A DNA stretch of 64,000 nucleotides, from assembly GCA_973895155.1 (NCBI GenBank), contig OZ316894.1, positions 22,787,867-22,851,866 of the forward strand. Reading direction: 5' to 3'. The DNA is from Marsupella aquatica. Lineage: Eukaryota; Plantae; Marchantiophyta. The first letter of the stretch is position 1, and every line of letters begins with the position of its first letter. Made by a program: the position numbers and the translations under genes. The notes beneath the pieces are model-generated. The model made no database searches. It saw only the letters and a list, made by a program, of their open reading frames with translations, and had not been told where the DNA came from. Below, piece by piece: positions 11,095 to 37,794 of the stretch.

Positions 11095-11335
11095 GGTCAA
11101 ATGGGGGAACCATGGTCAGTTATTAACACTCCCTTGTACTTCACAGTCACAAGGGGGAACCATGGTCAGTTATTAACACTCGCCTGTACTTCACAGTCAA
11201 AAGGGGGGACCATGGTCAGTTATTAACACTCGCCTGTACTTCACAGTGAAAAGGGGGCACCATGGTCAGTTATGAACACTCGCATGTACTTCACAGTCAC
11301 AAGGGGGAACCATGGTCAGTTATTAACACTTGCAT
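11095..11335. repeat. 50-bp minisatellite, left part (5 units), interrupted by the retroelement
   Basis: catggtcagttattaacactcgcctgtacttcacagtcaaaagggggaac recurs every 50 bp (11111 to 11311). Confidence 0.95.
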
Positions 11336-11372
11336 TATCATGCGGAGGGACAGTGCCTCTTATGCACATCGG

Positions 11373-11697
11373 CATGTCCCTCGCCTGCCCGCTAGGTATG
11401 TAGTTAGGGCTAGTGTACTACCTGAGTTAGCGACATGTTCTTGTAGCAAATCTGGGCCGTTCTTGAAGCAAATGTGCTTGTTAGTGTGACGCCAGGACTT
11501 TGCTTGCTTAGGGCATGTCTTTCTTTGTGGGTTTTCAGTTCTTCTTGAATCGCTGTGAGACAGAGTTTTTCAAAGGCTGCTCGTCGGTTCCGTACACGGA
11601 ATTCACACAGTGATTCGTTAGATGCTCCCAGCCGATCTTGGCATCTTGCCGGTTTTCGATTCGATTTCAGTACGTTTGTTTCTATCACGCCTTTTAT
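11373..11697 (+). repeat. Repeat A1 (325 bp), copy of A2 at 20792-21116
   Basis: Manual alignment at offset 9419 shows 5 mismatches, all transitions. Confidence 0.95.
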
Positions 11698-11709
11698 TCA
11701 AGAAGAACT
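11696..11709 (+). promoter_or_regulatory. Putative self-priming primer-binding site (Tf1/sushi-like)
   Basis: ATTCAAGAAGAACT is the exact reverse complement of AGTTCTTCTTGAAT at 11537-11550, whose first A lies in an Inr-like TCAGTT. No TGG tRNA PBS is present. Confidence 0.7.
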
Positions 11710-14700
11710 CGTCGAGATAGCAGTGAGGGGAAGAAGATTACTTGTGGCGGTTTCGACAATTTCTGGTGAAGTCATTGCAATTTCTTCGACGGACATCGGA
11801 GGGACGAGTTGAAATTATGAGTTTAATGTCACGTTATGTGTAAGTATACACATAAAGCTTCTATTGGAACCCAGCTTTTCCTTCCCAGGTGTGTCCGCGA
11901 TCCCTTCCGTTGAATGTTGCCTCCGTCGATTGCCGGCCGCAGCATGACCTACTTCCGACTGCCATTCGACTGCCGCGAAGTGGAGGCGACTTGCTGCTGA
12001 TCGACACATGCGAGGCCGTTTTTCGGTGTTTCCCAGCCAATTTCTCTCCTTTTTCCATTTTGTTCAGGCAGCTCCCGTCGCGAGCTGTTTCCCGGCCGCA
12101 ACCCCTTTTCTTTACTTGGCAACTACCGTCGCGAGCTACCTCCTAGTCCTGCCGTTGCCCTACCTGCAGCCTGAGTATACACATGCGGGGCTCATCAATG
12201 CCCAAAGCCGCGCATAGGGCCGCGCGCCCTCCCTTCACTCCTCCTTACTCACATAGGGGGGGTCCCATTTTTCTTTCGCCTCCCCCTCGCCTCGTTTTAG
12301 CCTCGACCTTCCGTTGCCAGCATTAAGAGAGGGGGGGGAGTACAGACTCCCTTCTCTTGGGAGTAGATTTTCGCACAAGGAGGGAGAGGGCACGAGGCCC
12401 TATGAAGCATTAAAAGCAGGGGGGAGGGGAAGTTGAGCACAACCTGTCAAGCCAGGGGGAAGCGAGTGCCAAGAGAGGGCTCGAGGCCCTAGGCAACATT
12501 AAAGCAAGGGGGAGGGGGAGTCGAAGCAGTAGCGCAAGGAGTGGGCACGAGGCCCTAAGCAACATTAAGGAGGGGTGGGGGAGTTAGTCGCTCCCTTCTC
12601 TTCGGGAGCACATCAGGAGCCAGGAGGGGGCGCGAAGCCCTATGCAGGGCCCGAGCCATTGATTGAATCACAGTGGTGTGTGCATAGGCTGTCTTAATTG
12701 GGGCCCCATTTCTTTTCTTTCGCTGCGCCCTCGCCTCACTTCCTCGCTTCGCCGCACCTTTTCCTCCTTAATTAAGTGCTCCGCGGCCTGTACGTACATA
12801 GGGTCTCGTCACTTTTCCAGTGTGCTTGATACTTCCCGGGTCCACATCGGGGCCCGATGTATACACTTAACCGAGCCCCATGTTTGTACATTTGCAAGGG
12901 CCCCATGTATACACTTAAGGGGGCCCAGGTTTACGTTTTTAAGGGCCCATTTTTTAGGATTTCTTTGCTGCCGCAACGTGTCATCTGCATAAAGCTGAGG
13001 GCCCGGCATATTCATCAGACAGACAATCCAGCAAGCATAACACCAATACAATTGGAGTTTTTAAGGGTTTTTTCTTCGCTGACGGTTTTTCTGTGTGTTT
13101 ACACGTTCGACACATTTCTGCCTCGCACCGTTTATTTCCTAGCCTTGGGGCTGCCATTTCTTTTTCTTGTCAGTTTCTTTCCCATTGGCACCCAGGTGAG
13201 CATGCAGCATGTCAGCCGACGAGCCAGGAGGTAGCAGCACATCGCCACCGACACCCAGGTACCATTTACGGAGTGATCCACGACCATTGGTGCCAATTTC
13301 ATTGGAGTCTTGGCAATTTGAACGACGTCCACAGATTGTAGCAGCACCCACACCACGCAATCCTTCTGCTCAATTTGGCGGTCGCTTCACTACTAACCCG
13401 AAGCCTGCTATCACTTCCTTGCCATTTACCCCTTCTGCATTAGTGGTTGTTCCAGCTTCACCGACATACAGCATGGATGCTAGCCACTCATCTGGCCGCA
13501 TTGAGCGCTTCAACGGGTGGCTAGGCACTATTTCTTTACGTGAGTTCAAATCCACTTTCTACACTGTCGTTTATGAATTGGAGTTGAAGTACGGCAGCAA
13601 TTTCACAAATGCTTTTGCATTTAAGCAGCTAGCCAGGTATGTGCACCACGAGGCTTTGGATGTGTATGAGCAGCACTCTCAACGGTTGCTTGCTATCACA
13701 CAATTGCCTAACCCTGCCTATGCGAGTGCAATTGCGGCTGCCTCACAATTGGCATTACAGAATGCCATTGCAGCCCATGCTGCTGCTCCTACCACTTCCC
13801 CTCCTACTCCAGTTCCTACCACTGCGCCAGTTACTCCCACTATCTTGGCACAGGCTACATCAGGCATTTCTCCCACCATTGATTCCCCTGCCTTTGCTGA
13901 TCCAGTGGCTGAGTTTTTCCAGGTTCTTGAATTGGAATTCCCCATCAAGAGTGCTGACAAAATCATGCAGTTGGCCACCTTTGTGAGGCAGCGCGATGAA
14001 ACATTGAAGATGATGTATCGCCGGCTTCTCAAGCTGAAGGAGGACACCCAGAGCATCACTGACCTGGAAGCTGCTCATCGCTATCTTTGCGCATTGGAGG
14101 GCACACTAGCTCTCCATTCGCAAGTGTTGCAACAAGTATTCTTAGAGTTTGGAGACAGCTACACCCTGCTCAATGTCTATGACACTGCTGAGAAACTTGA
14201 GTTGGCCTATGCACATTATGAGGCCAGTATTGCATGTCCACTGCGATCCAGGTACCAGGCTGCTGCCCCTACACTGGCCACCCCTTCCCGTGTGCCACAG
14301 TATGGTTCCAAGACCAAGCCAGCCCGTGCTGCTTTCATGCTGCCATCTTGAAACTACTGTGGTAACCCCAATCACAAGGCTAATGACTGTGATATTGTTG
14401 CTGAGGACCTGTCTTGTGATTTTGCGGGAAAGTGGGTCACTTGGAGGCAGTTTGTTTTGCCAAATTCCTAGAGAGGAAGCAGCTACGACAACAGGCCCCT
14501 CCTCCTACTCCTGCTTCCACTCCCCCACCAGCTAGGAGGGCTCCTACTGCATCAACTGCTCCTCCTTCCAGTGGCAAAGCATCCAGTGCCAACAAACCGC
14601 CCAAGCAGCAACAGAAGCCACCAGCTCAAAAGGAGGCTCACAACGCACAGACAACTCAACTCCAGTCTCTGATTCATGAGGTTGAGTCCCTACGTGCCCA

Positions 14701-16300
14701 ACTTGTCAACATCAAAGGCAAGTCAACTGCCTCTACTGGTCCTTCTCAACCGGCTGGTCACGTGCAACCCATCCCTGGCCCAGGCACCACAGACAGTTCA
14801 ACACCTCTACCCCGCTCTTTCTATGGCTTGCCATTTGATGCTCATATGGGTGAGTGTGTGTTGTCCTCTGCTCCACAGCCTGGCCTTACAGCAGAATTTT
14901 CAGATTCATTCTGCCCTTCCTATTTTGCTTACCAGCAGGCCAGTGCTGCTTCCCGTACTGCTCCCACCCGCCGCATTGTACAGGCTGATGGTCTTGCTGC
15001 TGGTCCTCTGACTAGAGCCAGGGGAGCTCGGGCTATCATGCCCCGATCCTTTCAGCCACTCACACTTGCTGAAGAGCGCACCTTGTTGGCGAGGGGGGAG
15101 GGAGCTGCAGCTACATCCATTCCACCACCAGGTGCTGCTGACATTTCACAGGGAGTTGTTTCTCCTGAGCTGCTTGAGCATTTCACCTCCGGTATGGCAC
15201 AAAGGATTCTTACAACTCCACTTTTCAGTTGCCATGATTTACAGCTGGATGCTAGAGCTATCCTCAGGGCGCTAGAGGGTGCACTACATTCTTCATCAGC
15301 CCCTGTGACACCGGTTTTGGAGATCCAATCTCATATACATACTGGACCTTCTTCTTCTCCTTTACATGTTTCCACTGGTTTGGCTGCCCCAGTACCGATT
15401 GCTGCTGAGTGTGTGACCAGAGCTACACTTGATTCTGGTCATGCTGCTCCATCTTTCCTGGCTATGTTGTTGAGTGGAAAGACCGTGGACACTAACTCCC
15501 TTCACAAGGTACCTCATCATTTGCCGAGAGTGGTGCCTAGTGACAGGACTTCAGTTTCCACCACCATTGCCATTGTTGACAATAGGAATTCAGTGGTCAA
15601 GTTGGAGGGTCACACTCCTCAGGTGGTCATGCTAGACACAAGTGCTCAACCAGTGATATTGGGCATTCAGTTTGCCAAGAAGATGGGACTGTTGACTGAT
15701 CATTTACAGCAATCCAAGTGGCACATTCGGACTGCTAATGGCACTGTGGAGGATGTGCTGGGTGAGAGTTCTACTTTACTCACTCTCACTTTTAATGGAG
15801 GTACAGATCAGGAACTGCATTTCCCAGTCAGATGTTTGGTTACCAATGCCACTACGTATGATGTGCTCATTGGCCAGGAGGCTTTGTTCCCACCAGGTTT
15901 TACCATTGACAACTGGCATGAGCATGCATACTACAGAGTTGATTGGCATACGGATGGCTCACACTTGGGATACATTCCACTTGATTTGCATGGTGCCCAT
16001 ACCCCTATGGCTCACCACTGTGTGTTGAAAGCAGTGCACACAGCTACCTATGTCAACCACCCATTGCAGGATTGGATTGAGGAGGATGATGATGAGGTGG
16101 CTACTGCACATGCTGTTGCACGTATAGCAGCACTTTCTAGCAACGTGGATCATCAACCAGAGGTGGTACAACGGCTCCAAGCAGCCCATGGACCTTTGGT
16201 GGCTGCATTGCACAAATTTGAGGACCTTGGGCAGCATAATGGACAACCAATAGCCCCAATCTTGAGCGCACCAGTTACATGGACTCCTCCTTTAGATGGC

Positions 16301-17260
16301 CTTACATTGCTTGAGCTTTTTGGTGGCATTTCTACAGGCCTGGAAGCTCTTCTAAAGTCTGGCATGGTGGTGAAGCAGTACATCTATGTGGATATTGATC
16401 CAAGTGCAAGGCAAGTGGCTGAATCCCGTCTGCTGGAATTTTCAGAGCGATTTCCTCAGCAGTTTCCACACAGTGCATGGAAGTCTGCATTTTCTTTCTT
16501 TCCTCCAAATATCCAGCTTGTCCAGCACCGGCACTTAACCCTTCTTGGCTCCCTTGATTTGATCATAGCTGGTTGGGAATGCCAAGGGTTTTCAGTTGCT
16601 GGTCACGGTGCTGGACTGCATGATTCTCGTTCTGGCCTTTTCACAACATTGGTTCAGATTCTCACCTGGGCTCAATCCCTTTATCCTGCTGTTGGTTATA
16701 TCATTGAGAATACTCCATCTCAGTTTGACCAGCATCCATAGGTCAAAGAGGATTTCAGTGTGGTCCAACACTACTTGGGACCACCCCTTCTCATTGATGC
16801 AGTGCACTGTGGTTCTTATGCACATCGTCTTCGTAACTTTTGGACTAACCTTGCACCACCTTCCTTGTTGGAGTTAGCTCTTCACCACACATCCAGGGAC
16901 ACTAACCTCACAGTGGACCAGATTTTGGATCCTGACAGTTCTTGCCAACTGGTTACACGGCAAGAGCTAGCACCTTGGTATCCAGCTAATACCATTGGAC
17001 AACCCCGTGCTGCTTGGCCTACATTTGTGTCCTTTCCAGGTGCACATGCTTTTCAGGGTGATGGTCCTGGCCTGGTTTATCGACATTCTACTGGTACATG
17101 GGATGAACCTAGTCCTGAGGAGAGAGAACGGGCTATGGGCTTCCAACCCGGTACTACAGGTCACACCAAAATCACCAGGCTGGCCAGGAATGCTTTACTT
17201 GGCAGGGTAATGGATCTTAATGCTCTCACTTGGCTTCTGGTCACTTGCATCCTTTTTCAG
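16301..17260 (+). other. DNMT3-like cytosine-C5 DNA methyltransferase domain inside Pol (one in-frame TAG at 16739)
   Basis: Motif I LELFGGISTG, II YVDID, IV AGWECQGFS (catalytic Cys kept, PC>EC), VI IIENT, VIII DAVHCGSYAHRLRNFWTNL, IX ERERAMGFQPGTT, X RLARNALLGRVMD. Motif order is canonical, not DRM-permuted. Confidence 0.9.
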
Positions 17261-20200
17261 ATGTACATTCATCCAGCATCAGGAGTTCCAGCCCTACCAC
17301 TCCATGGTGCTGCTACATGGCATCCAGACCAGGTGCACTTACCTCTGTTCAACACTCACCACTTCAGTCCAAGTGTTGGGGGGGAGGAGGTCCCTTGTAA
17401 TGTGGCTGACATTATTTCTGAGTTTCATGGTGTGGATCAGACCAGAGCAACAGATATAGCAGGCCTTGGAGAGGCCTCATCACCTTATCAGCAGCATGCT
17501 AGCAGCTTGGACAGTGGAGAGGCTGGCACTTCTGGCTCTTCAAGCACGAGTACATCAGGTCCTATTCCTAGTGTTGCCAACTACACATTCATCATGGGCA
17601 ACCACCTGAGTAAAATACAGAAGGACCAGCTGTTAAATTTGCTCCTCAAGCATGAGAATGTGTTTGCTTTCTCTATGAAGGACTTGGGTAAGTGCAAGAC
17701 TATGCAGTTCTCCATTGAGTTGGCTGATGAAACACCTATCTTCAGGCGGAGACACCGTTTGAGTAAGCATGAGTGGCAGCTGGTGGATGAGAGATGCCAA
17801 GAGCTCTATGAAGCTGGTCTTATTCAGCCCTCTACATCAGATTTTGCAGCAGCTACAGTGATGCCAGCAAAGAAGGATTCCAATGGATTGTGGACAGAGA
17901 AGCGCATGTGTGGGGACTACAGGCCATTGAACCTGGTACCACCCCAGGACAGGTACCCCATGCCACGGCCAGAGGAGCTATTTGACAGCATTGGAGACTC
18001 AGACATCTTCACTCTTGTGGATCTAAGGCAAGGCTTTAACCAGATTTTGCTGCTTGCAAAGGACCGCAAGAAAACAGCTTTCCATGGTAGTAACCAACTA
18101 TGGGAGTGGTTGGTGATGCCATTTGGCTTGAAGAATGCGCCCATATTCTTTCAAAGAGTCATGGACCAGGTTCTTCAAGGTGTTGAGTTTCTGAAATGCT
18201 ACATTGATGATGTGTTGGTCCACAGCAAAGGATTTGACCAGCATCTACTTGACCTTGAGGAGCTATTCATGAGGCTTAAGAAGGTGAACCTAAAGATACA
18301 CCCCAAGAAGTGTGAATTTGCTGTCAGATCAGTAGTATACCTTGGGCACCGCATTCTTCCAAATGGAACCATGGCTCACTGGGCCAAGGTGGTATCCATC
18401 TTGGAAATGCCCACTCCGACTGATGTTCACACTCTTAGGAGCTTTATTGGGTTGTGCAATTACTACCGGATCTACATCAAAGATTTTAGTACCATTGCAC
18501 ATCCATTGTACTCTTTGTTGAAAAAGAATGTGACTTGGACATGGAGTACAGATGCCGAGGCAGCATTTGCCACTTTGAAGGAGAAGCTCTCAGAATACCC
18601 GGTGCTGAGAAGACCTGATTTCAGCAAGGTCTTTGTGCTACACACAGATTGGAGTGCCCTTGGGATTGGTGCCATTCTGGGCCAGCATGATGAGGAAGGT
18701 AAAGAGTACGTCATTGCCTATGCATCCAGGAGCAACAATCAGGCAGAAAGTCATTATTCTTCTTATGAGGGTGAATGCCTTGCTGTTGTGTGGGCTGTCA
18801 TACATTACAGGCCCTACCTCTATGGGACCAGGTTTACTCTCTACACCAACCACCAGCCCTTGAAGTGGTTGATGACTAACGACAAGCTTACTGGCAAGCT
18901 TGCTCGTTGGGCACTCATCCTCCCGGAGTATGACTTTGAGGTAATTCATAGGCCTGGTTTGACACATCAGAATGCTGACACTATGTCCCACAGCCCTTTG
19001 ATTACCTCTGATGATTCCTCAGATGCACGGCAAGATTTTGACCAGGTTTCCATCATGCCTACATTTCATGCATCGACCTATCTTGCTTTGCTGCCATGCT
19101 ATGTTGTTGACCAACTGTGGTGGACATATGGGAGGACAACGACACTCTGAGATTTCTGTAGCATGGGGAGTACCGCACACATGTTACTACTGCCCAGAGA
19201 GACCAAATTCAGCAAAGGTCCAAACGCTACTTGTGGAAGGGAGATCATCTCGTGCGCTGCTTGCCAGACAGGGAAGTGGTGGTTCCACCCATTCATGAGA
19301 GGGTTGGCCTTATTCGTAAGGTACATTCTGAGCTTGGTCATTTTGGCGTTAAGAGGACTTACAGCCTCTTGGTCCCTCATTATCATTGGAGAGGCATGCA
19401 TGGCCAGGTTCGAGATGTTATTGCCCGGTGTGAGCAGTGTGATAGGGTAAGGACTTCTTTCACGTCTCGGCAACCCACACTTCACCCACTCCCTATTCAG
19501 GGCATGTTTTATCGTTGGTCATGTGATTTGGCTGGAGAATTACCCCTCACATCTCGGGGTAATCTCTACATCATGATCATGATAGAGCATTTCTCCAAGT
19601 GGATAGAACTTGTGGCATTGCCGGATAAGACCTCCCGTAGCACCAGCCAGGCATTCCTACAACAAGTTCTCAGCCGCTTTGGAGCTTGTGCAGAATATCT
19701 CACTGACCAGGGCTCAGAGTTTAGAGGAGAGTTCCAGGAGCTGCTTGATCAGGCCCTCATTGATCATCGCCGGACATCACGAGATCACCCACAGGCAGAT
19801 GGCTTGGCAGAGCGCATGGTTCAGACATGCAAGAAGGGCCTCCGGAAGATCTGCCTCACCAAAAACAAGGAGGATTGGGACCTGGCCTTACCCTACATTG
19901 CCATGGGGTATAGGATGTCCAGACATGCATCACTGTCTAACTTTTCTCCCTACTTCTTGTTGTTTGGTCGTCACCCAGTTCCACCTTCTGCTATTGCTGC
20001 TCACATGCTTCAGGTGGTGGACTTGGATTCAGCTGTGACTTGGTCTGATGTGATCTCTTAGAGGGCTGCCCTATTCAGGAGGGTTATGCCCATGGCCATG
20101 GAGAATTTGGCCATTGCACAACACAGGGACACACTGCGTTATGCACACACACGAGGGGGCACTTTTCAGCCCAAGGTCAGGAAGTTTGATGTGGGAGATT

Positions 20201-20418
20201 TTGTGTACTTGCAGCGGCAAGCTAACGACACCCTGGACACCTCTACCAGTCGTACTATTCTCAGGGTTAAAGCTATTCGACCGTCTGGAGTGCTAGAGTT
20301 ACAAGGGGCAGATGGGCGCACAATTGCTGACAATGCCAAGAATTGCGCCCCTTGTCATCTGCCTAACCTAGATCCCACCATTGTGACTTCTACTTGGATT
20401 CCACCTGTGGACTACCCT

Positions 20419-20556
20419 TGCAAGGTGTGTTTGCGAATTGATGATGCTGACCAGATGCTGCTGTGTGACAATTGCAATGGAGGGTACCATCTTTTCTGCC
20501 TTCGGCCTGAACTTACCCAGGTGCCAGAAGGGTTATGGTTTTGCCCTTCTTGTGCT
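20419..20556 (+). other. PHD finger (C4HC3) at the integrase C-terminus
   Basis: CKVCLRIDDADQMLLCDNCNGGYHLFCLRPELTQVPEGLWFCPSC, in frame with the integrase across a single TAG at 20059. Confidence 0.93.
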
Positions 20557-20603
20557 CCACGTGCTACCTGAATTTTCTTCAGCCCTCCTTTTGGCTGTGG
20601 TCT

Positions 20604-20610
20604 GGGGGGG
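20604..20610 (+). promoter_or_regulatory. Polypurine tract (G7) directly before repeat B1
   Basis: tctGGGGGGG|atacagagg; repeat B1 starts at 20611. Confidence 0.6.
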
Positions 20611-21291
20611 ATACAGAGGTTTACACCTCCACTACGTACATACCACTTCATTTGTTTTTTCTTGGCACTTGTGAATGTGATTGGACTTTTTCTATGCATG
20701 TTGGTTGCTAGCAGCTTGCACATATGCCTTGCCGGTGACTTGTATGTTTTCGATACACTATGGCTACGATACTATATGTCACGACAGCTGTCATGTCCCT
20801 CGCCTGCCCGCTAGGTATGTAGTTAGGGCTAGTGTACTACCTGAGTTAGCGACATGTTCTTGTAGCAAGTCTGGGCCGTTCTTGAAGCAAATGTGCTTGT
20901 TAGTGTGACGCCAGGACTTTGCTTGCTTAGGGCATGTCTTTCTTTGTGGGTTTTCAGTTCTTCTTGAATCGCTGTGAGACAGAGTTTTTCAGAGGCTGCT
21001 CGTCGGTTCCGTACACGGAATTCACACAGTGATTCGTTAGATGCTCCCGGCCGATCTTGGCATCTCGCCGGTTTTCGATTCGATTTCAGTACGTTTGTTT
21101 CTATCACACCTTTTATATACAGAGGTTTACACCTCCACTACTACATACCACTTCATTTGCTTTTTCTTGGCACTTGTGAATGTGATTGGACTTTTTCTAT
21201 GCATGTTGGTTGCTAGCAGCTTGCACATATGCCTTGTCGGTGACTTGTATGTTTTCGATACACTATGGCTACGATACTATATGTCACGACA
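20611..21291 (+). repeat. B1 (20611-20786) - gc - A2 (20789-21116) - B2 (21117-21291)
   Basis: B1 and B2 differ by one 1-bp indel and 2 substitutions, and both end in ATGTCACGACA. The B1/A2 junction reads CACGACA-GC-TGTCATG. Confidence 0.95.
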
Positions 21292-22008
21292 GCATGTACT
21301 TCACAGTCACAAGGGGGCACCATGGTCAGTTACTAACACTCGCATGTACTTCACAGTCACAAGGGGGAACCATGGCCAGTTATTAATACTCGCCTGTACT
21401 TCACAGTCAAAAGGGGGAACCATGGTCAGTTATTAACACTCCCCTGTACTTCACAGTCACAAGGGGGAACCATGGTCAGTTATTAACACTCGCATGTACT
21501 TCACAGTCAAAAGCGGGAACCATGGTCAGTTATTAACACTCGCCTCTACTTCACAGTCAAAAGGGGGAACCATGGTCAGTTATTAACACTCGCCTCTACT
21601 TCACAGTCAAAAGGGGGAACCATGGTCAGTTATTAACACTCACCTGTACTACACAGTCACAAGGGGGGACCCTGGTCAGTTATTAACACTCAACTGTACT
21701 TCACAGTCAAAATGGGGAACCATGGTCAGTTATTAACACTCGCCTGTACTTCACAGTCACAAGGGGGAACCATGGTCAGTTATTAACACTCGCATGTACT
21801 TCACAGTCAAAAGTGGGAACCATGGTCAGTTATTAACACTCGCCTGTACCTCACAGTCACAAGGGGGAACCATGGTCAGTTATTAACACTCACATGTACT
21901 TCACAGTCACAAGGGGGAACCATGGTCAGTTACTTCACAGTCAAATGGGGGAACCATGGTCAGTTATTAACACTTGCCTGTACTTCACAGTCAAAGGGGG
22001 AACCATGG
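21292..22008. repeat. 50-bp minisatellite, right part (~15 units)
   Basis: Same unit as 11095-11335, with one truncated unit near 21930. Confidence 0.95.
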
Positions 22009-25000
22009 CCGATTGCCACTGGCAACATGTAAGGTACCAGGGTCCCGGTAAATGCCCATCAAAATATGGTCATATATAAAGTAATGCGTCCCCTGATTGC
22101 ACATCAAAATATGACATATAGTGAATATTACATTACTCCATACCATGATAAATCTCATTTTATTCTTTAAATAAATGAGTGCACAATGTATGTTATCATA
22201 TTTTGATGTGTAATTATCGCAGGGATATATAAAGGGAAAGGGTTGAAGACTTTCAGTATTCACATTCCATTCGTTCTTCTCTTCCATGGTGCCATTTTGT
22301 TTCCCTATTCTGGAAAAAGTATACTGTTAATGGCAAAACCTGGTGGATCCAGGTTTTTTCATGGCTAGTATTTGTCTAACACAAATAGGCACTCAACCTG
22401 ACTCATGCCGCCATATCATAGAGTGAGAGAGCCTAGCCTGGAGCCCCTCATGTACTGGAGAAGTATACAAGGCAAGGGCCATACACTTTCTGGCCCTTGC
22501 AGATCCAGACCTCAAACTGCAAAATTAAACCAAAGCTCAAATGCAACATTTTGTTGAGAGGAGTGACACTTGCTGCAATGCCCTGTATAATCTTTAGTTG
22601 CAAAACACTATCACGCCAACATTTACATAGCTTTTCTAAACAAGTGCAATCTGCCTTTCACCAGCATCTTTAGGAGTGATAAGGGCCGGAAATTCGAGGG
22701 TTCTAAGGGTTCTCTCAGTTGTTAAGAGCCTTTTCTTTTAAGGCCCTTAACATTCCTCTAGCTAGGGGATAACGTAATTTAGATTATTGACATGATTTGT
22801 CATTCTATTATTTGTGAATTTTCTCTTGTTCTATTCTATTTTCAAGGTTACTGCCCTTGCCCTTGGTCATCCATCACATGTGTCATCAGGTCTGCCTAAG
22901 GAGGAAAATTGAGGAGGAAAGTCTCACTCACTGTATGAATGTCACTCATTCAGTTGAGGGCCGCAAACTCAAGGGCCACCCACATGCAAGACTACCGTAA
23001 GGGTGAACTCTTAACATTTTTACATTTCAAAAATATAGCTCAATTTGTTAAGTAATTTCTCAGATTCTAGTTTTTTTTAAAGCAATGACAATGAAAACTA
23101 GGTGTTTTTGTAGACTATAGATTGTAAATATTTTCATAAGTTCCACAAAAAGTAAGTACCATTTTTTCTCATGGACTCAAATTCTCTATAATTATAAAGC
23201 GCAAATGAAACCTAGGGGAAGTGTTATTGGTTTTTCACAAGCAAAGGACCTAATTGTTTAATTTCATGGAATCAATTTTCAATAATTCTTTACGGTAGTG
23301 TACTACACCAGGCCAGGTGGTACTGTACAGTTGTGCATGACAATGTATAAATAAAGCTTTGGAAGGTAAGCTTGTTGGGAAGGGTTATTGTGAAGTGACT
23401 TTGGGACCACACCTCACATGGGGGATAGAGTTAGTTGACAAACCTATCAATAAAGCGCAAACGAACCCTAGGGCAAGGGTTATTGAGCTAAGTTTGTAGG
23501 CACTGACTTTGGGATCACACTAACATTGGGGATAGATGGTACCCACCATCTGCTAACTAACGACTCCAAAATACACTATATTATTACATATATATACTAC
23601 TACATTTTTGTGAGCAGGCCAGTTCTACTCCATTGCTGTTTTGTTTTTTATTAGAAAAATGTTAAACCATTTTCTCTAATAGTATTGGAGAACATTAAAT
23701 GTTTCATGCAAGAGAAAAAAACACAGAAATGTACCTCATATGAAGTGCGATAAAAACAAATAAAAAGATGGGGGTGGAAGGTACAGGAAGGATGCTACAG
23801 ATCATTATGTTGTTGTTTCACGAGGTAATGTGGTACATATTGATATAAATAATGTAGTATACAATAGTTGTTTTGTGTTGACCAGAGGAGACGAGGCACT
23901 GCTCACTTAAATCCCAATAAAGTTTAAGTTCTCTCCATGACTCTGAATGATCATGCTAACTATTTAGCAGAGTGGTAGAAGGGAGCAGCAGTGCTGGAAG
24001 GTCAAGGGTTTGAAACTAGTTGAGTATCCTTTTCAGGAGCCTTGCAACTGAGACTCTAGAATGTGGGGTACTCATGCAACCTGGAAGACATGTACATGTT
24101 CTTGCAAAACAAAAGTAAAGAACAAAAAGCAAGTTGACCGGGGTTCCATCTATATTAAAAATTAAAAAACCCAAAGAATAGGCTCTGCTGAAGCTAATTA
24201 AAAACTAAATACTCACCTCTGAAAGGTAGCTCCCCTCAGGTGGATTGTGCCATAAGTGGAGGTCAAAAATATGTGATTGAAGTCTTCCTACTTTGTACAA
24301 TGAATTCTCATAAGTAGAGACAGGCATGAGGAGTCGAGTCGGGGTACAGGGAGAGCCTTTCCTATACATACTCAAAGGATATTTGAGCTAGTATTTATCA
24401 CTGCTAGACTTCTAGTTGGCACGTATCACTACGACACTACCAGACATGTAGTTAGCACATGGACTGATAAGAATTTCATTAGCATCACGAATATCATTTT
24501 TCTAGTTTCGGGAAAGGTATGTGAGTGATGAGACTTCACTCCTTCCTAGGACGTATTTCTTTCTTCAAGACTGTACTATCCATGTGAGCTATTGGATTGA
24601 TATAGATTTCAGGAGAACCATTAGATCTGGTGTTTTGATATGAGCAATTAGATTTCTCTAGGTCTATAGTGGACCATTAGATTTCAGAAACCCTCTTAGT
24701 TTAATAAAGATTTGGCTTGCGAAAAGGATAAATTTCATTAATTTTCTTTGTACTAAGTCACTGCCCCTGTCACCACAGCATTTTCTAGGTAAGATCGGAC
24801 TTATATGAGTCTAGGAAAATGGCTGATCACGTGTATTAGTCATGCCTCCACACTGCAGTCCCCCTATCCCAATGGTGGGTGAAGACCTGTCCAACAAAGT
24901 GTGTCAAAACCTTGTGATGGCAGGGCCCTATGGAGCTCCTTTGAAGCTGCTTTTTGTAAGCTTTCTCTTCCTCATAGCACAACATACAAGCAAGGTATCC

Positions 25001-28000
25001 ATAACAAAAAGTATCAAGCTAGGTCTGACTTGCTAGAAAAAATAGGGTGGCACTTCGGGTCTCTAGCCGTACTGTGCCTGTAACCCACCAGTCTGTGCTA
25101 TTGACAAATTATTGTATGAGATATACACAAATACCATTTATTAATGATTATATTGTGTCACGGCTGGCCATGTCCTTGTGACCATGGACTCCATTGGACA
25201 ACGATGGTGGCAGCCAACTACTATGCAAGGATGATCGGTGCAGTCTAACTTATTGACCACGGTAAACTGAAGGGTTAAGACTCCTTGTGACCATGCGATG
25301 CAACTCCCGCTCAAAAATTCCCAGCAATATGATATGCTCTTTCATATGCCCAATTATATTATATACGTAGAAATAAGCAATGGAGGTCACCCTTTGTACC
25401 GTATGTGGGCCCTGGCAAGCTTTTTAGTTTGTTTCTTACTGGAGTTTTAGTGCTTTTGCCCTTGCTGGGATTCTCCTACTTTTTGGCTCTTAGAGTTTCT
25501 TAGGTGTTTCTTCTGTTTTCTCCCCTTTCTTGGGCGGCCTTTCAGATCTTGTCTTGAGGTTTGTGTCTATCTGTTCTATGAAATTTTTATTTACACACTT
25601 TGAATGGGAATTTGAAACCCCCATTGACCACAAGGTTTGTCTCTAAAACCTCCATGGACTACATTTTCTAAAATCTGAGCTTATTTTAATAACTTGATAT
25701 TTATAAATTCCAATATTTTTTAGTGTTGGGGATACGCTGGAGGAGTAGCTACACTTCCATCAAAGTGACAGTAAAATTTTGGCTGCTTGGTTGGGTTTCT
25801 CATCGTAGATGCGAAAGGGTAAATTCTATGATATTATTTTCCCCGTGTTAACATGAATATTTGGGCTTGTGTGTTTATGTCTCCTCTTCTCTAGTTGCCT
25901 TGCAGGTGCAACACAATGAGTTAGTTTAGAACTCCTAACCACCAAGTTATTGGCCCCAAATTCCAATGGACCACATTTTGGAATTTGAAGCCACAATGGA
26001 CTACCATGTTGGACACAGTGTACTCTATTATTCTCTTATTATTTTTGGACTTTTGCCCTCTATTATATTATTCCCTTATTATTCTGGGACTGTGCCTTCC
26101 CTTCCAAGCCCTCTATAGTTTAGGAGGAAGTAGAGCCTTGATACAAGCGCCTCAATTGGCCGTTGAAATAATTGTGATTGAAAGTCATAAAATGCAATTA
26201 AATTATAGAAATAAAAACCATACACCACCCCAACCTCACACATAGCGAGCTAGGAACAAGTGATCAAGTTATGGACCCAACTCCCATGAACCACATTTTG
26301 GTGGTCTACACGAGTACACTATCCAACATAGAGGTCCATCCTGGCTTCACTTTGGGAACATGTGATTTCATTACTTCAGTTTGAAAGTCTACTTTCATTA
26401 TCCTCTTATTATTGTTCTCATCAAACGTGTAAGCCACAGCGTCTCCAACACTTTAGTGAGGAATTTCACAGGCAATAGCGCAACAAGACTTCCCTGGACC
26501 AAAGCTACTTAGACGTTGCCACCTGTCCATGCCTCTGGATTCCCGTGAATCGTGCGGTCGTCGAGTCTCCACTGACGGATGAGGGGGACGATGGACCGGG
26601 GTGTCAGAGTCAGACGATGGCCACTTTTAAAGCATGTCGGACTCTGGTGCAGCATGACAGTCATGCGTGGGCTTACTTCAGGCGTACACAAACATCCATT
26701 GGCTGTACGATGATTGATGAATTGGTCCATGGACGAACCGACCAACGGGGCCAATAGGGGTCTCAATAGGGGTCTCAATAGGGGTCGGTCTCAATAGGGG
26801 TCTCAAAGCGTTAGTTATGGTCAAGGACAAAAACAGTTATAACTTACCTACAGTAATTCACAGCGGGTCTCAACATTGTGGAGTAGCAGGTCTCAATAGG
26901 GGTCTCAATACTTCAATAGGGGTCTCAAAGCCTTAACTTAGGTTAAAGGACAAAGATCGTTATAATATTACCTAATTCCTACATTGAGACCCCTAGTGAG
27001 ACCCCTATTGTGAATTAGGTAATATGTAACATTGTTGTGTGGAGTAGCAGGTCTCAATAGGTGTCTCAAAGCCTTAACGTAGTTTAAGCACAAAAAATAG
27101 TTATACCTAATTGGTAGTCCATAACTTTATGCCATAAAATGTGGTCATATGTCATGAGACTGGTGAAAAATATCAAATTTGTTTTTCACATAATTCCATG
27201 AAAAAGTCGTGGTCATGTGCTTATGACCAAAAGTCATTATCTGTAACTTTGAAGTTTAAAACGCCCTAATAATATTGTGGAGGGCACTTTTCCCACTGGC
27301 ATGCAGAAATGTCCGTGAATGGGACAACTGTACTCAATCTTGGGCACACAATTTTGAGACTATATGCACTTGATGTTTGATGGACTTTGCTCTTGCCAAG
27401 ATGGCACTAAGCAACAACACATGAACATGCCGCCTCCCACTTCCTACACAACAATGGTCATGACACTATAGGGAAATCCTGCGGGCAGCTGGTGCGGATC
27501 ACCCTTGTGGGTGCCCATCCCATGTTTGCCTGGGGCTGTGAATGAGGTGTCACTGGGCCGTTGCAAAAATTGAGACCCCCAGTAGTAAAGTTACTCATTG
27601 TTCTAATATGCTCTTTCTCCTCCCTCCTGCATTCATGTAATAGGTTAGGGGCTTTTCTTGATTTGAGGGACTCTAGAAAAAATCTTTGTTGTGAGCCTAG
27701 TAGTGCTCTTTACTTGCAAGCTTTACTACCCTTTTCATTTTATTGGTCAATAGGGCTTTAATTATTTTGTTATAGGAGAGGACTCTTAGGTTGTTTGGTC
27801 TTCCTGGGTTTGTCCCTTGTTTTCTCCTCTTTGTTAGATCATCTGCCTTTGGGATCTTGTCCCCCAATTGGGCACAATTTGTTCTTGGCACTGTGTTATA
27901 TGCATAAACTAAGCTTTTCAGTTCACTAAGCTTCCCACTTGAATGTTCAATAGGGCTTTAGTTCGTTTGCTTTTGTAGGGGTCGCTAAGGCTTTTTGGCT

Positions 28001-29075
28001 AGGGCGGTAGTTCTTAGGGGACTCTAAGGACTTTTGGCTAGGGCTTTAATTTTTCTGTCTTTGTAGGCACTCTCATGCTTTTTGGCCATCCTGGTTTGCT
28101 TTTGTTTTTGGGTCTCGAGAGGGATTCTTCGTTGTTCTTTCTACCGTAGGCTTTGCGTTCGTGGATTCGTTTAGGTCCCTTTAATACTAATGCTCTTTTT
28201 GGTCATTCTTGCTGCTCGGCTTCCTTCCAAACTTCGAATTGAGTTCACTGCTTTTCAAGAACCAATTGAATGAATTTGCCAAGTCATGAACTCCAAAACA
28301 CTCATGATTCTGAGGTATTCTTATTCATCAGTCTTTTCAAATGGAGTTCTTCTTCCTTCTACTTCATGCTGTCGTTTTTTGGTCTCGAAAGGACCTTTTG
28401 AGCGTTCTCTTCAAAGTACATAGTAGCCTTTGCGTTCGTAGAGTGAAGTCATGGACACCAAAACACTCATTCGTCTGATGCGTTCTTCTTCATCCGTCGT
28501 TGTTTTTTTGGTCTAGAAAGGAATTCTCCATCGTACTTTTCAAAGTATACAGTGGCCTTTGCGTTCGTGGATTCTTCTTTTGAGTTTGTGTCTCTGAACC
28601 TCTTAGCTTTCTTTCGTTTCTTGCCTTGGAATCGAAAGGAGACCCATGGAATAGACCCATCGAATAGAGGATAGACCACTTTTGCTTTCTCACTCCATTG
28701 TACTTTTTTTTCGCCCTTTTTTGTAAATCGGTACTTTTTCTCTCTCTAGTCCTGTTGCTCTTTTTCGTCCTTGCTACGCGTATTGGCTTACTTTCAACTC
28801 CGCGACGTGCTTTTGAATAACCAATTTAATGAATTTGCAAACCTGTATGAAGATGAGAATCGTTCACCTGTTTGGTCCACTATGATCCAGCTCTTTGCTG
28901 CTTCCGAGACTCCTCTGGACCTCGATTAGATCGCCCAGCTCCAAAATATTCCAAAAGCTGCACCAAATCACCCTCTTAATGAGAGAAAGATCTAAAGAAC
29001 ATGAACACTCTGTCATAGCCCCCCAATGAAGTTATCGATTGCACCGTCTAGTCACCGCCCAATCTCAATTCTTTC

Positions 29076-30098
29076 TTTTTTGCCTCGAAAAAAACTAAAA
29101 GAATTCAATTCAATCAGTCAGCATACAGAGGGGCGGAGTCCCAGAAAGGAGCGTCAACCCAGGTGGACCGAAGGTCAAAAGTGCCGGGACCCCGGTGAAG
29201 CCGGGACCAGGTAAGAAGCAGGCCAAAGAAAGGCCACCCAAACAAGCTATTTGGAGTCTACACAGGAGCAGCACACTCCCAAAGACCGGCCAGTGATGAA
29301 GGACCGGCGGGGTCCCAAACAGTGGTTCCGTGATAAGAAAGAATCTATCAGTCTAAAGTAGTACAGCCTCTAAACCTGCAGACCAGAGGACATCATGGTG
29401 GCCGTGGTGGGACTGGTTGGACTTGGAGAATCTCTTCGTGAATTTGCCAGAGTCCATTCCAAGAACCATAATCCATTGCCAACTCATGCAGAGCTTCCCC
29501 GTGATTGATCTTCCCATTTTGAATCTTGGTTCTAAGCTGTTCCAGTCACGTCTGAGGTAGGTGCTAAGTCTATGCCATGCTTTCCTAATTACTCCGTGAG
29601 GATTGGGCCGAGTGTGCTCAATAAAATGTAAACATCGTTCCTTCCAGATGGACCAGCAGATGATGGCCCGAGAAACTTGCCATAGCTTCCCCGGAACGTC
29701 CCATTCGTCTGGTAGTTCATCCCCAACAAAGATATGAGCGGGTTGTAGATGTATCCGATACCCCTGAGTGAAGGTGCTTTGTTGAAGGATGGATTGTAAC
29801 CACGTCCAGACTATCTGTGACATGCTGCAATCCCAGATGCAATGAACGATGTCCTCATGCTTGTTCAATCCGCACCTAGTGCACCATGTAATCGGGTCGC
29901 CCGGTGGTAAACGTGGGAAACGCCAATGCTGTGTGGCCGGAATTCGATAAATTAATTGCCACAAATAACAATTTTCTCGAGCGGCGCGGAAGTTGAGCCA
30001 GGTATGAGACCAGAGTTGGCGTGGATTGGGGGTCCAATTCAGTCGAAGCGCCCACTTATGTATTGCCTTATGTAGGAATCCCGGGGCCCGACCTTGAT
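29076..30098 (-). mobile_element. 5'-truncated L1-like LINE (zf-RVT region and 3' UTR)
   Basis: ORF 29353-29964 contains WQLIYRIPAT...CTRCG...EDIVHCIWDC...VW. A 16-bp TSD caatctcaattctttc lies at 29060-29075 and 30099-30114, with a short T-run (A tail) at the 3' end. Confidence 0.85.
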
Positions 30099-32909
30099 CA
30101 ATCTCAATTCTTTCAGTGAGGAAATTCAGGGCCCAATCAAATCAAAAGAGCGGAGAACAGAAAGCGGAGAACAGAAAGCGAAGAAGAGAAGGAAGGAAGC
30201 GCGGGAACGGGAACGGGAGCGGACGTAGGACGAGGTCAACCCACAGTCAAAAAGAAAAAGACAGTCAACAAGGCCAGAAGCTGCAAATTATGGGAGGGAA
30301 TTGAATTGAAGACCGACATAAATTGAGGAATCAATCACGAGTCAATTGTTGGTAAATTCAGCGTCTTCTCAAACATCCATCAGACCACTTCAATTCTGGC
30401 TTAGACTGAAAACGAATTCTAGCCCAGAATCAGTAATTGACTCGTTATTGATTTGCTTTGTGTTGATTGAAAGACAAAATGTAGGCCGGAATCACGAAGA
30501 TCTAACTGAGTACAACCAAGGCCGTGTCTCTTCCTCAATCTGTCCTTCTCCAAATTGTTCGGACTAATTAGAAGAAGCTTCTGAATGAACAATAATCGAA
30601 ACAACAGATTACGCTTCAAACCTTCAGCAATCTGCCAGCTACGTTGTAAACCGGCAGCAACTCGTTGCAAATAGTGGTGCATCCGCAGTGAGAGAGACGA
30701 TCTCCGGCCGCCTCCGAATTGATGCAGAGATGAGCTGATTGAAGAGAGCAAAGCTGATACAGAACGAAGCGCCGACAAAGCACAGACTCAGCAAATTGTA
30801 CAGGACAGGCTACTGTATAATATACAGTAATTATTGGCGTTCCTTTTACAGTCATGATGATTTGCAGCGGGGAAAAATGGATTTGAGTCTCCCATGGACC
30901 ACAGAGTTAGTCTTTGAAACCCCCATGGATCACATTTCCCAGAACCGCACTTCCTAGAATTTGCGTTTAATTTTAATAACTTATATTCATACATTTAAAC
31001 ATTTTATAGTTTTGGGGATGTGCTAGAAGAAAAGGTAAATTACACTTCCATCAAAGTGACCATGAATGTTTGCGTGGATGAGTAGTTGATGTATTGGGGG
31101 AAGGATAATTTCCACTGGAGTAATTTTCTTTGTGTTAATATGAAATAATTGGGTTCGTCTTTTCTAGTCTCCTCATTCCCTAGTTGCTAGGAATAATCTT
31201 TAATGTAGCTAATGCCACGTTCGATGCAAGAGATTATGCTAAGAATTAAGATTTTCTTGCATTGCTTTCTGACTTGGAGATTTCACTAGTTTTGGATGGA
31301 TATTAAATCTTGGCTAGTAAAGTCTATGGCTAGGTGGAAAACTGGTGAATGGGAACAGAAACAGGAAAACCTGGTGAATATTATATATTGCACTAGCCCA
31401 ACTACCAGTTCTTTGAACATGAATAGAGATGAGGGTAAAAAAGTGTAGACCCTCAATGACACCAGCTGACCAAAGCTTCTTCAAATTCTAGAAGAAGAGC
31501 TGGCGGTTTCACCATAGCCCTCAACCATCTATCACACAACAGAACTCTTCACATGCGGCCCCTACTCCATGGACTCCCTTCACAGCCGGCCCTTACTCCA
31601 CCCCATTCCTATTTTTCACCCCCACCTCTAATTGGATTATTGTCCCCTAAGTCATTGAACATAAATAGAGAGCAAGACAATAAAGAATAGTGCAATAAAA
31701 ATGATTATATAATACTATTTCTGGTTCACTTTTGTCAATCTCTGTTTTTTGTTTTGTCCTTATTGAGACTTATGGTCTATAGTCTTCACTCTACAGAGTA
31801 ATCCTCAAAAGTAGCTTTGCATTGCACTTGATTAGTAAGATGTGGCTAGGTGTAAAACTGGTGAACATTTGGAAAACAGGAAGAGAAAACCTGGACGGTG
31901 AATATTATATATCAGAGTGCAAAGTAAAACCAGAAAGCGGGAGAGAGGGTTCTTACCAACAGTGACTAAACCTTTCTATGGAGGTCAAAACTACCAACTA
32001 GCAAGTTTTTGCCATTAAAAAAGGTTATTCTAGCATACATCTTGACATAATGATTTTTTTCTGAATCTCTTTTGTGGGGGAGTGGAATTGGCGACTATCT
32101 CAAGGATCAAGGAAGGAAAATAAGTAGGACCAACTTCAAGAAATTCATACATTTATGTATAGCCAATTTTCTCTAATCTTACAGACATCCATTTGATTGT
32201 CAAGGATGGGGCCTATAGAATTTAGAGTAAATTTGACTTACTTTTCTCTCCAAAATTTCTTTTGTAGTGTTGGCCCGTCCATGAAGTTGGGATGAACCCC
32301 AATGTGTAACTATGCAATTCAGATGGACCTACAATTGTTTTACTGGCAATAGCTTATTTTGCAAGGTAATTCCGTTTCCACCAGAGTGTGACATAGAGGA
32401 TTCTAATAAGATTCTTTATCTGATTTTAGTACTTATTTCTAAGGGTTAGATCTTCTTAAACCTTCAGATTCTGGAGAATAGGTTATTGCTAGGTGAGAAA
32501 CTGGCTAATGAAGACAAAAGACACCTAACAATTCTAGCTAAAAGTGTGGAATATTTTTGTGGGTGTAAGGGTGGTTTACAAGAACTTGGGGGCAGCCCTT
32601 CCTTTTTTTTAATGTGTGAGATGCAATCCACACTTCACTTCTAAATTTGGGGGCATGATCAAGCAAAACCATTACCCAACTTAGTCATCGATCCCCATTT
32701 TTTCTGGGCTCATGTGTACATATTTTTTTGTCAAACACTTATTACACCTCCTCTTGAGTTTATCTAAAAGATGGAGGAAGGGCAACTTCTTTTCATGGAT
32801 TTCATTTATTACCATTAAACAAAACCTGACACATTCTGGCCCAAACATTTTAACTTTAGTGTATGGAAGTCCCCCCACTCTAATGTAAAAACCCCCCTAA
32901 TACGACAAA

Positions 32910-33200
32910 CTAGTTCAATACCTGTGCGTTGCACGATAGATGTCCTTAAGGAAAAATATGTCGTGTTGCCCAAGATTCGTTAGGAAAAAAATTCATTTTG
33001 CCAAAGACGTTGTTATGTAAAAGATGTTGTTATGTGAAAGTTGTTGTTATAAGAAAGATGTAGTCAAGTAAAAAGATGTCATTAACAAAAAAAAGTTTAT
33101 TTTGCCAAAGAAATCGTTATATGGAAAATGTAATCAAGTAAAACTATTTCATCATTCAAGTAAAAAGATGTAGTTAAGAAAAAAAAGTTATTTCAATAAG
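32910..33200 (-). mobile_element. Helitron 3'-end fragment
   Basis: Minus strand reads cgtgcaacgcacagg-tattgaaCTAG|T, followed by the same degenerate aaagatgt.gtt repeats as the 38487 Helitron. The 5' end was not found. Confidence 0.6.
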
Positions 33201-34683
33201 GTATCCATTCAGATTCTTTCCTTTCAAACCTTAACTTCCCCCTCTTTTCACTATTTTTGGTCTCCTCTTTTTCTCATTTACCCTCCTTCCCCTTGCTCCT
33301 CCCCCCACCCACCCATCCAAGGCTAGAGCCCTTCGAGGCACTGCCCTACATAGCAAGTGTGCCCTCGCCCAACTGCTTGCCATCAATATATGCCCATGCC
33401 ATGATCTTTACTATGTATTTGGGCCTTATTGCTTTAGTTTTTTTTGGCACTGAAAATGACACAAAATATGAATGTATAAAATCACCCCAATAGTATCTCT
33501 AATTTGACTCTTAACAATTTACAGTGAGCTATGTAGTATCACTCTAGTGAGTATGTATGTACACCCTATTGAGTATACACAGTATTTCCTTACATGGACC
33601 ATGGAAGGAGTATCTTTCTCGATCCTCGTGTATAGTGTTATCGTGTTTATTGTTTGTTTATCGCATAAAAGTTACACCAAAGTTTATATACCAGGTAAAT
33701 AACAAAGTTTGTTTATCCCATTTGATTTCCTCTTGTTTGGATAATCGTGTGACTTTTTTTCATTCACACTCCAGTAAATTCACTTTTTGGCTTTATTCTT
33801 TACCAGATTTCTCAGGTTTTGTGTCCTGCAAATTTGAATGAAAATCAGAGTACATATTGGCACACCATGTTACTATAAATTTAATTTAACACCAGCCATG
33901 ACATGACTGTGGCTGCTGCTCACGTGAGCCCTACCAACTTTATCTGTGGCTTTTGGTGCTAAAACAGAGGGAAGCTTCGTGGACAGCCTTGGAGAAGCGT
34001 CCCTCTCTTTATTCATGCTTACAATCTACGACAATTGCAATCAGGCACAATCTGGTGAAAAGCCCAACTAAGGGAGGCCGACCCATCCATTGCCGAGCCT
34101 GGAAAATTGCTTTGTAGATGCCAAAAGCCCTTCGCTAGTGATCTAAAGATTTTCTGTCGTGGTAGATGAGGGTGATGAAATGCATGATGTCCGCGTCAGC
34201 TCATTGGGGTTTTAGAGCTGAGATCGATGGCTCTCGGCATAGACAAGTGTTGACAGATTTTAAAAAGATTTCTCGCCGGATTCTAGTGAGGGTTCGTTCA
34301 TCCGGTCCTGCTTTTGATCAGTGGCTCACGCCAGTGACAAGGTGCGGACGCGTATCTTGAGGATGTTTTTAAATTGATTGCATGGCTTCTCTCACACAGC
34401 TATATAAATTCTTGCACATGAACTCTAATCTGCATCCCACTCCCTCTGTCCTGAGGCTGATCCAGTGCGTCTTAAACATCCCCTCCGATACAGTGCATTT
34501 TATTCAACGTCGTTTAGTGGTCGTCTGCTCAAAATCTCATCATCATTCTGTTCACACTCCATTTGCCAAGTCTCTGTTGTCGTCCCACCTCAGTTACTGC
34601 CTAGTTTGAGCTAGAGACTGTAGCTCGGCTCAGTCGAGTACATCAGCTACAGTACAGTACTGATATAGAGTGGAGGCAGCATC

Positions 34684-37600: not shown

Positions 37601-37794
37601 CAAAGGTTGCGAACTTAAATGAGAACTTAGGGGCTTTGAAAGTAAAGTTGACGCCCAAGGAGCTAGAAGAGGTGGCAGCTGCTGTGCCAAGCGCGGATGT
37701 GGCAGGCGGTAGATTTTCCGAATCCCATATACTGAACTTCACCTGGAAGGATGCCGTCACACCGCCTTTGGAATTGACTTCGAAAACCGCATAG
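34684..37794 (+). CDS. Aldo-keto reductase (plant AKR13/perakine-reductase-like), copy 1, 7 exons
   Basis: [16 protein letters not shown]|VSALGLGCM...FFDTSDAYG...ASKYG...YYQHR...[10 protein letters not shown]...YSPLGRG...PIPGTTK; the D/Y/K/H tetrad is intact. GT-AG introns; TATA at ~34400. Confidence 0.93.
36750..37045 (-). mobile_element. TRIM (296 bp) with 119-bp tRNA-derived LTRs, in AKR copy 1 intron 5
   Basis: LTRs 36750-36868 and 36927-37045 (TGTTGG...CCAACA); 5-bp TSD GAAAC; minus-strand PBS TGGTATCAGAGCCA (tRNA-iMet) and PPT AAGGGTGGG. The empty site is at ~48189 in copy 2. Confidence 0.95.

Follow-up and report, generated by a model that had tools for sequence, protein, structure and literature searches.

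A 64,000-nt stretch of the Marsupella aquatica genome (contig OZ316894.1; hereafter the window) carries, at 11336-21291, a Gypsy-type retroelement whose long terminal repeat (LTR) is split into two parts, A and B. These are arranged with the open reading frames (ORFs) in the order A-ORFs-B-A-B, and the whole is flanked by a 4-bp target duplication. Analysis of this element and its relatives indicates that integration very probably uses an attachment site lying inside the reverse-transcribed LTR, and that the termini of the complementary DNA (cDNA) are joined to one another rather than to the host. The layout is real and shared by the family, and is not a one-off. The joint between the second A and the second B (A2|B2) looks newly made at each insertion.

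Repeats and ends of the window element

The following features, in window coordinates, define the element.

11332..11335, + strand: left target duplication, GCAT, inside a 50-bp tandem array
11336..11697, + strand: A1, true extent, with integration end TATCATG; corresponds to distal U3, R and U5 in the reverse-transcribed LTR
11339..11388, + strand: predicted stem-loop beside the left end; its 5' arm is formed by 34 nt between CATG repeats that are not in A2
11537..11548, + strand: probable transcript start and self-primer; pairs with the priming site
11698..11709, + strand: primer-binding site of the self-priming type, adjoining A1
20604..20610, + strand: polypurine tract of seven G, adjoining B1; assigned from sequence and alignment
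20611..20786, + strand: B1, proximal U3 of the reverse-transcribed LTR, last letters CACGACA
20780..20795, no strand: internal attachment site CACGACA-GC-TGTCATG with a 2-nt spacer
20789..21116, + strand: A2; B1 and A2 together make a whole 506-bp LTR, 20611-21116
21117..21291, + strand: B2, end-to-end on A2 (TTTTAT|ATACAG), with the right integration end CACGACA
21292..21295, + strand: right target duplication, GCAT

The repeats lie where a preliminary description of this DNA had placed them. A1 (11373-11697) and A2 (20792-21116) differ at 5 of 325 nt, every difference being a transition, and B1 (20611-20786) and B2 (21117-21291) differ by two mismatches and one 1-nt indel; given this near identity, the window copy is young. 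The same description had defined the LTR as B+A from its reverse-transcription signals, which agrees with the seven-G tract adjoining B1 and the priming site adjoining A1. This priming site is not of the tRNA type, and pairs with 11537-11548 within A1. The further claim of TG...CA ends with a GCAT duplication stands in part: GCAT is found on both sides and the internal site reads CACGACA-GC-TGTCATG, but A1 starts at 11336 and the left end of this copy is TATCATG, whereas the family end is TGTCATG.

A1 holds 34 nt after the left end, between two CATG, that are absent from A2. The longer form of A was also found in public sequencing runs, both directly after the B end (21291 joined to 11338, in runs X2 and X3) and, among the matches listed, at loose ends at the internal B|A site (X1, X3 and X4). 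Because these runs show it at the internal B|A site too, it is a family variant; most likely, A2 of the window copy has lost the 34 nt between two CATG repeats.

The insertion target is a 50-bp tandem array, which occupies 11096-11335 (about 4.7 units) and 21292-22008 (at least 13 units) and keeps its register across the insertion.

Family-wide layout and target duplication

We collected relatives from 80 metagenome loci, all on short-read contigs, whose reverse transcriptase (RT) is 69-83% identical to that of the window. A or B repeats were found in 61 of these; the 19 with no A/B match were dropped, and removal of 9 duplicates left 52 distinct insertions. A methyltransferase landmark used in the locus comparison was out of frame and is a rough marker only.

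On the 5' side, A stood alone in 27/27 insertions, and B preceded A1 in none of the 26 with at least 250 nt upstream; nor did any of the 80 loci show a match to B between A1 and gag. The 38 3' ends, a solo A-B unit being left out, comprised 18 B-A-B, 19 B only and 1 B-A, and the full A-ORF-B-A-B order was present in six distinct two-ended relatives. The arrangement is thus one-sided, with the A-B-A-ORF-B type at 0/26 and its mirror form at 18/38 (Fisher p 1e-5). Target duplications were scored in 15 two-ended copies (the window, six full, seven A-ORF-B and one solo; L060, whose B is truncated, was excluded). At TG...CA, the 4-bp duplication was exact in 9/15 and exact or altered by transitions only in 14/15, while 5 or 6 bp fitted none and 3 bp fitted one. 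The A-ORF-B copies shared it in 6/7 tested. This 4-bp duplication is not due to chance.

Public runs also contain the window's own family. In the best 24 of 104 loose-end matches, the B end was followed by unlike flanks in 13 contigs of run X1 and 11 of run X3 (agreement 0.41-0.42); the A end, among the matches listed from four public runs, ran only into the priming site. A comparison with the whole element gave no end junctions among the matches listed, whereas a short-stretch query did show them.

Age proxies for the two main 3' forms were mixed: B-only copies looked slightly older than B-A-B copies by CpG (median 9.9 versus 13.3 per kb, p 0.02), and G+C content and stop counts did not differ, so that one of three proxies separates them.

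A solo A-B unit lies in a flank at L027:16885-17363, with TG...CA ends and an exact CAAT duplication. In L025, L026, L047, L058 and L019 the B end consists of short CACGACA sub-repeats, and some copies stop at the second-last of them, as does L026 with an exact TGCA duplication; B1 and B2 of L019 differ by one unit.

Separate cDNA and integration ends

In the standard scheme of LTR reverse transcription, the priming site and the polypurine tract set the ends of the cDNA. With B1 directly after the polypurine tract and the self-priming site directly after A1, the cDNA of the window element should read BA-ORF-BA. The same signals recur in the relatives. GGGGG precedes B1 in 35/46 loci, self-priming is kept in 20/27 related 5' ends (at most two mismatches), both pairing partners differing in sequence from those of the window, and in most loci the self-primer has a TATA box about 25-30 nt before it. 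Because these two signals mark B+A as the reverse-transcribed LTR, integration would have to use the internal CA-NN-TG site. The inserted form is BA-ORF-BA circularly permuted: it is open at the B|A site of the 5' LTR and lacks the 2-nt spacer of that site.

The two junctions, both inspected by eye, behave differently among the 18 related B-A-B insertions. At B1|A2 the spacer was 2 nt in all 18, in a 7-2-7 form (GC in 7, AC in 3, GT in 4, AT in 3 and TA in 1). The A2|B2 joint was exact on the cDNA termini in 10, unclear in 1, had gained or lost 1-2 nt in 5 and carried long deletions in 2. In all, the A|B joint varies in 7/18 copies and the B|A site in 0/18. B1 and B2 had 2.11 rare states in common when taken from one insertion and 0.37 when taken from different ones (permutation p 5e-5), and no separate B2 lineage was found among the B2 copies. 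This rare-state test replaced plain distance, in which pairing is weak because methylation-type decay dominates. In one further locus, L037:7594-13950, an internal part of the element is inverted and about 650 bp of gag-pol are missing. The inversion breaks fall exactly on the end of A2 and 15 nt inside B2; such breaks would be expected if the A2 and B2 ends had once been free. Together, the rare-state sharing, the lack of a B2 lineage, the variation of the joint and L037 suggest that B2 derives from the template of B1 and that A|B is joined afresh.

Two proposals of the preliminary description are supported: that A2|B2 is an end-to-end junction (exact on the cDNA termini in 10/18, with B2 resembling its own B1), and that the integration ends are the internal CA-NN-TG of the 5' LTR (no B before A1 in 26 ends, 4-bp duplications in 14/15).

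Proposed mechanism

The best account of these observations is the following cycle. Transcription would start inside A1, and self-priming followed by reverse transcription would yield the BA-ORF-BA cDNA. Host end joining would then ligate its two free ends, which would create the A|B joint. Both strands of the 5'-LTR palindrome would be cut by the integrase, the 2-nt spacer lost and the product inserted with a 4-bp stagger. The cycle could repeat, because A1 still supplies A-ORF-BA-B with a promoter and its 3' side still has a full LTR. Why the 5' site should win is a matter for speculation. Directly after the second strand transfer it may already be a stable duplex, bound by integrase, while the 3' LTR would be displaced and single-stranded until plus-strand synthesis has crossed about 9 kb; a stem-loop could fold there and hide the 3' site. 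A stem-loop starting inside TGTCATG is predicted both in the window's family and in that of the loci, with different sequences. Its fold has a z of -2.3 to -2.7 in the window (-2.7 in A1), and the effect is modest among the relatives (median z -1.84 in 44 A copies versus -0.48 to 0.17 elsewhere in A), several old copies of which do not fold. That it hides a displaced 3' site is speculation.

We are highly confident of the core of this cycle, the use of the internal site and the joining of the cDNA termini. Our preference, a mild one drawn from the genomic copies, is that the circle is closed by end joining before integration and opened by integrase at the 5' site. Whether the elements form an old green-lineage Gypsy clade (recognisable by a PHD finger and a D-34-E integrase) in which the attachment site has moved into U3, an end-joined 2-LTR circle is the obligatory substrate and 5'-site choice is built in, so that it would be the first natural retroelement on the 1984 circle route, we hold to be an even call.

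Several points weigh against this account. A closed circle has two identical sites, of which the 3' one would on cutting leave A-B-A-ORF-B, so the 0/26 bias requires an extra assumption, and L037 and the many A-ORF-B copies (19/38 3' ends) fit joining after integration equally well or better. Circle formation before integration is not singled out, because joining of the free cDNA ends after strand transfer yields an identical product. By plain distance, a B2 has its own B1 as nearest neighbour in only 6/18 cases, and gene conversion after insertion could also produce the rare-state sharing. A1 and A2 of the window differ by 34 nt in U3, where a single template predicts no difference unless A2 later lost them. 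The two-ended copy L024 lacks a duplication, and the related loci are short-read metagenome contigs. The circle, the cDNA and the transcript are predicted intermediates, deduced from inserted copies.

Alternative explanations

The order of cutting and joining could be reversed, with integrase cutting the 5'-LTR site of linear cDNA and inserting both new ends, and the host repairing the break between A2 and B2 afterwards. End joining would then give A-ORF-B-A-B, and annealing of B1 with B2 would give A-ORF-B. Such a route explains the one-sided use of the site without a circle, the 19/38 B-only 3' ends together with the 4-bp duplications on A-ORF-B copies (6/7), and the small A|B indels and the L037 inversion. 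Yet most A|B joints are exact (10/18), each insertion would cost a chromosome break, and the slightly greater CpG age of the B-only copies fits later deletion, although their G+C and stop counts are alike; we consider this route unlikely, if a serious contender. A joint might otherwise arise during reverse transcription, if RT jumped from the end of the minus strand to the opposite end, or onto another cDNA molecule, and integrase cut the resulting concatemer at alternate sites. Three of the 18 joints (L032, L059 and L064) are 2 nt short at the shared AT, which a microhomology clamp would explain, but both AT dinucleotides are kept in 10/18, and a template on a second molecule would not make B2 like its own B1, which makes such a jump improbable.

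Repeat order alone would also fit a cycle like that of PAT, Ngaro and VIPER, which share it (PMC4157794, PMC6681497). In such a cycle the whole A-ORF-B-A-B would be transcribed, A2|B2 would be inherited through RNA and the internal repeats would only restore the ends, with a DDE integrase in place of the recombinase. Against this, the joint matches to the base the ends that the polypurine tract and the priming site define, A|B varies while B|A is constant, and the B2 copies have no lineage of their own, leaving it a very small chance. Finally, the window copy could be a one-off rearrangement, a nested solo LTR or an assembly artefact of an ordinary element with A+B or B+A as its LTR. Nothing beyond the 34-nt difference between A1 and A2 and the short-read contigs speaks for this, while none of 26 5' ends has B before A1, no B was matched between A1 and gag in the 80 loci, duplications match in 14/15, many host flanks adjoin the B end in the window's own family, and the arrangement was reported independently in Klebsormidium (PMC5890265). 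The family-wide layout, the B-end flanks and the 4-bp duplications rule this reading out. The check proposed in the preliminary description, whether independent insertions share A-ORF-B-A-B with 4-bp duplications, came out positive: six relatives show the full order, and 14 of the 15 two-ended copies carry the duplication.

Coding content and integrase

The coding features of the element are as follows.

13200..14351, + strand: gag-like ORF, assigned by position and conservation in relatives; no Pfam match
14420..16741, + strand: pol part 1, with aspartyl protease at about 15596-15886 (PF13975) and the first half of a C5 cytosine methyltransferase from 16310 (PF00145); in-frame stop at the end
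16742..19150, + strand: pol part 2, with the remainder of the methyltransferase, reverse transcriptase (YIDD at 18200; PF00078) and RNase H (PF17917)
19162..20061, + strand: DDE integrase with H2C2 finger (PF00665, PF17921); D122, D182 and E217, spaced D-34-E
20062..20571, + strand: integrase C-terminal part with PHD finger (PF00628), parted from the core by a stop

Pfam matches give the order gag-like protein, protease, C5 methyltransferase, RT, RNase H, integrase with H2C2 and rve core, and PHD finger, with the methyltransferase (PF00145) between protease and RT in pol. The assignment to Ty3/gypsy with a DDE integrase, made earlier from the letters, is supported by this protease-RT-RNase H-integrase order, the Ty3-type RT and the rve core. 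The window copy is broken: its pol has stops at 16741 and 20061, and near 19150 the frame changes. No chromodomain was matched by Pfam in the element, which has the PHD finger instead. Tyrosine recombinase gave no Pfam match in the 13 of 24 listed ORFs that were scanned, the others being alternative frames over identified genes, or flanks and repeats.

The best solved relative of the window integrase is the Ty3 integrase (7q5b, E 8e-21). The D-34-E spacing was found in 63/64 homologues at 40% identity or more, Tetrabaena and Tetraselmis proteins among them, and in 58/60 loci, and D-35-E instead in 103/104 more distant integrases. D-34-E unites the entire PHD-bearing group, whose hosts range from liverworts to chlorophytes, and searches for members of the clade could use it as a marker.

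Elsewhere in the window, long ORFs at 50960-53242 and 60192-61745, both on the - strand, have weak matches to linker histone H1/H5 (E 8e-5 and 4e-4); the former holds about six 150-bp repeats. The regions 23585-38486 and 42042-49623 form a local segmental duplication of several blocks, 81-95% identical.

Phylogeny of the relatives

The nearest named RT is that of the liverwort Calypogeia fissa (83% identical). A quick tree placed the window in an 11-row group (SH-aLRT, Shimodaira-Hasegawa-like approximate likelihood ratio test, 100) with one Calypogeia protein, two JGI (Joint Genome Institute) proteins and seven metagenome loci. A wider 31-row group (SH-aLRT 86) added proteins of Klebsormidium, Closterium and Marchantia; the named KnitGypsy-Dnmt3 sequence was not among the rows. 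Such neighbours make a bryophyte host probable. Among viral contigs, a single-protein query gave no match and an alignment query gave distant RTs only, and the genome contigs searched contained no related element. Comparison of the A and B repeats of the window with those of the loci showed almost no similarity save at the attachment site and the G-tract|ATACA border. As the remainder of A and B is unalike, these two are apparently what selection keeps.

Comparison with known systems

The window element has the gag-pol order of a canonical Gypsy element, with a priming site, a polypurine tract and TG...CA ends with a 4-bp duplication. It does not have two whole identical LTRs at its ends with the cDNA termini as integration ends, nor the D-35-E spacing. 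Because whole terminal LTRs are not present, it is Gypsy by descent and enzymes rather than by canonical structure.

The closest described counterpart is KnitGypsy-Dnmt3 of Klebsormidium nitens (de Mendoza et al. 2018), which the legend of Fig. 4c presents as having a DIRS-like repeat arrangement with Gypsy domains, the DIRS arrangement being given as A-coding-B-A-B (PMC5890265). The preliminary claim that no DDE LTR family has this layout must therefore be withdrawn: the layout is already known from that one legend, without a mechanism. The window element is similar in combining Gypsy pol and a C5 methyltransferase with A-ORF-B-A-B, the methyltransferase of the window being placed in the C5 class without assignment to the Dnmt3 subtype. 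The text of PMC5890265 says nothing about the ends, the target duplication, the priming signals or a mechanism of KnitGypsy-Dnmt3, and its supplement has no mention of target sites or circles by keyword; Fig. 4c and the supplementary figures may hold more. In the literature searched, KnitGypsy-Dnmt3 is named by just one further paper. In our quick tree, the wider clade that surrounds the window RT includes Klebsormidium RTs. Three Klebsormidium proteins are 47-51% (two) and 45% (one) identical to the window over RT-RNase H; they lack the methyltransferase part, so they are not directly tied to KnitGypsy-Dnmt3.

Self-priming Ty3/Gypsy elements such as Tf1, Tj1 and plant Tcn1 share with the window element the protease-RT-RNase H-integrase order, DDE integrase, self-priming, a polypurine tract, a short duplication and TG...CA ends (PMC4600332, PMC6317226), Tf1 and Tj1 using the self-priming arrangement (PMC4600332). 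As these sources describe them, however, they integrate by their cDNA termini and have two whole LTRs, neither of which holds for the window element, which also has a PHD finger for the chromodomain and a D-34-E core. The active PHD-bearing Gypsy-7a_cRei of Chlamydomonas has a left LTR without the last 8 bp of the right LTR (PMC9940879), and is possibly a short-B form of the A-ORF-B-A-B layout.

PAT, TOC1, Ngaro and VIPER resemble the window element in their A1-ORFs-B1-A2-B2 order and in an internal junction copy that is opened on insertion (PMC4157794, PMC6681497). The window element differs in that its integrase is of the DDE type, its ends are TG...CA, the 2-nt spacer is lost and 4 bp of target are duplicated; the ORFs scanned gave no tyrosine recombinase. 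The integrases of foamy virus (PMC1180852) and HIV-1 (PMC1905944) cut a palindromic LTR-LTR junction in vitro; as there, the proposed substrate is a palindromic CA-NN-TG duplex. In the retroviral accounts, the palindrome arises by joining of cDNA ends, as a side route, whereas in the window clade it is inherited in U3 and is the only integration end seen, the end-to-end joint being a different and apparently inert site. The copy-out/paste-in elements IS911 and ISCth4 similarly have a DDE enzyme that integrates a circle at two abutted ends with a short spacer (PMC7780238), a circle being only presumed in the window clade. They are DNA transposons whose junction is made by transposase in each cycle, while the window junction would be copied by reverse transcription.

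Novelty and implications

Textbook LTR elements and retroviruses integrate the ends made by reverse transcription, and their circles are treated as by-products. Use of a closed junction by integrase has been argued since 1984, when a circle-integration route for retroviruses was reportedly proposed; Panganiban and Temin (1984), Lobel (1989) and Ellis and Bernstein (1989) are said to have worked on retroviral circle junctions. We found no account of a mechanism for the A-ORF-B-A-B clade in the literature searched, with most subscription journals, repeat-database reports and figures outside its scope. The split of cDNA ends from integration ends, the one-sided use of the site and the D-34-E marker appear to be undescribed.

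The main survey of plant elements, as its text describes its approach, takes as criteria two whole LTRs with TG...CA and a duplication (PMC6317226). The share of A-ORF-B-A-B elements in bryophyte and algal genomes is probably undercounted, because tools that demand two whole LTRs miss them. In every copy examined, this clade keeps its cDNA ends and its integration ends apart. The normal substrate of its natural integrase is apparently an internal palindrome without a break, and whether integration requires end joining by the host can be tested simply in this clade.

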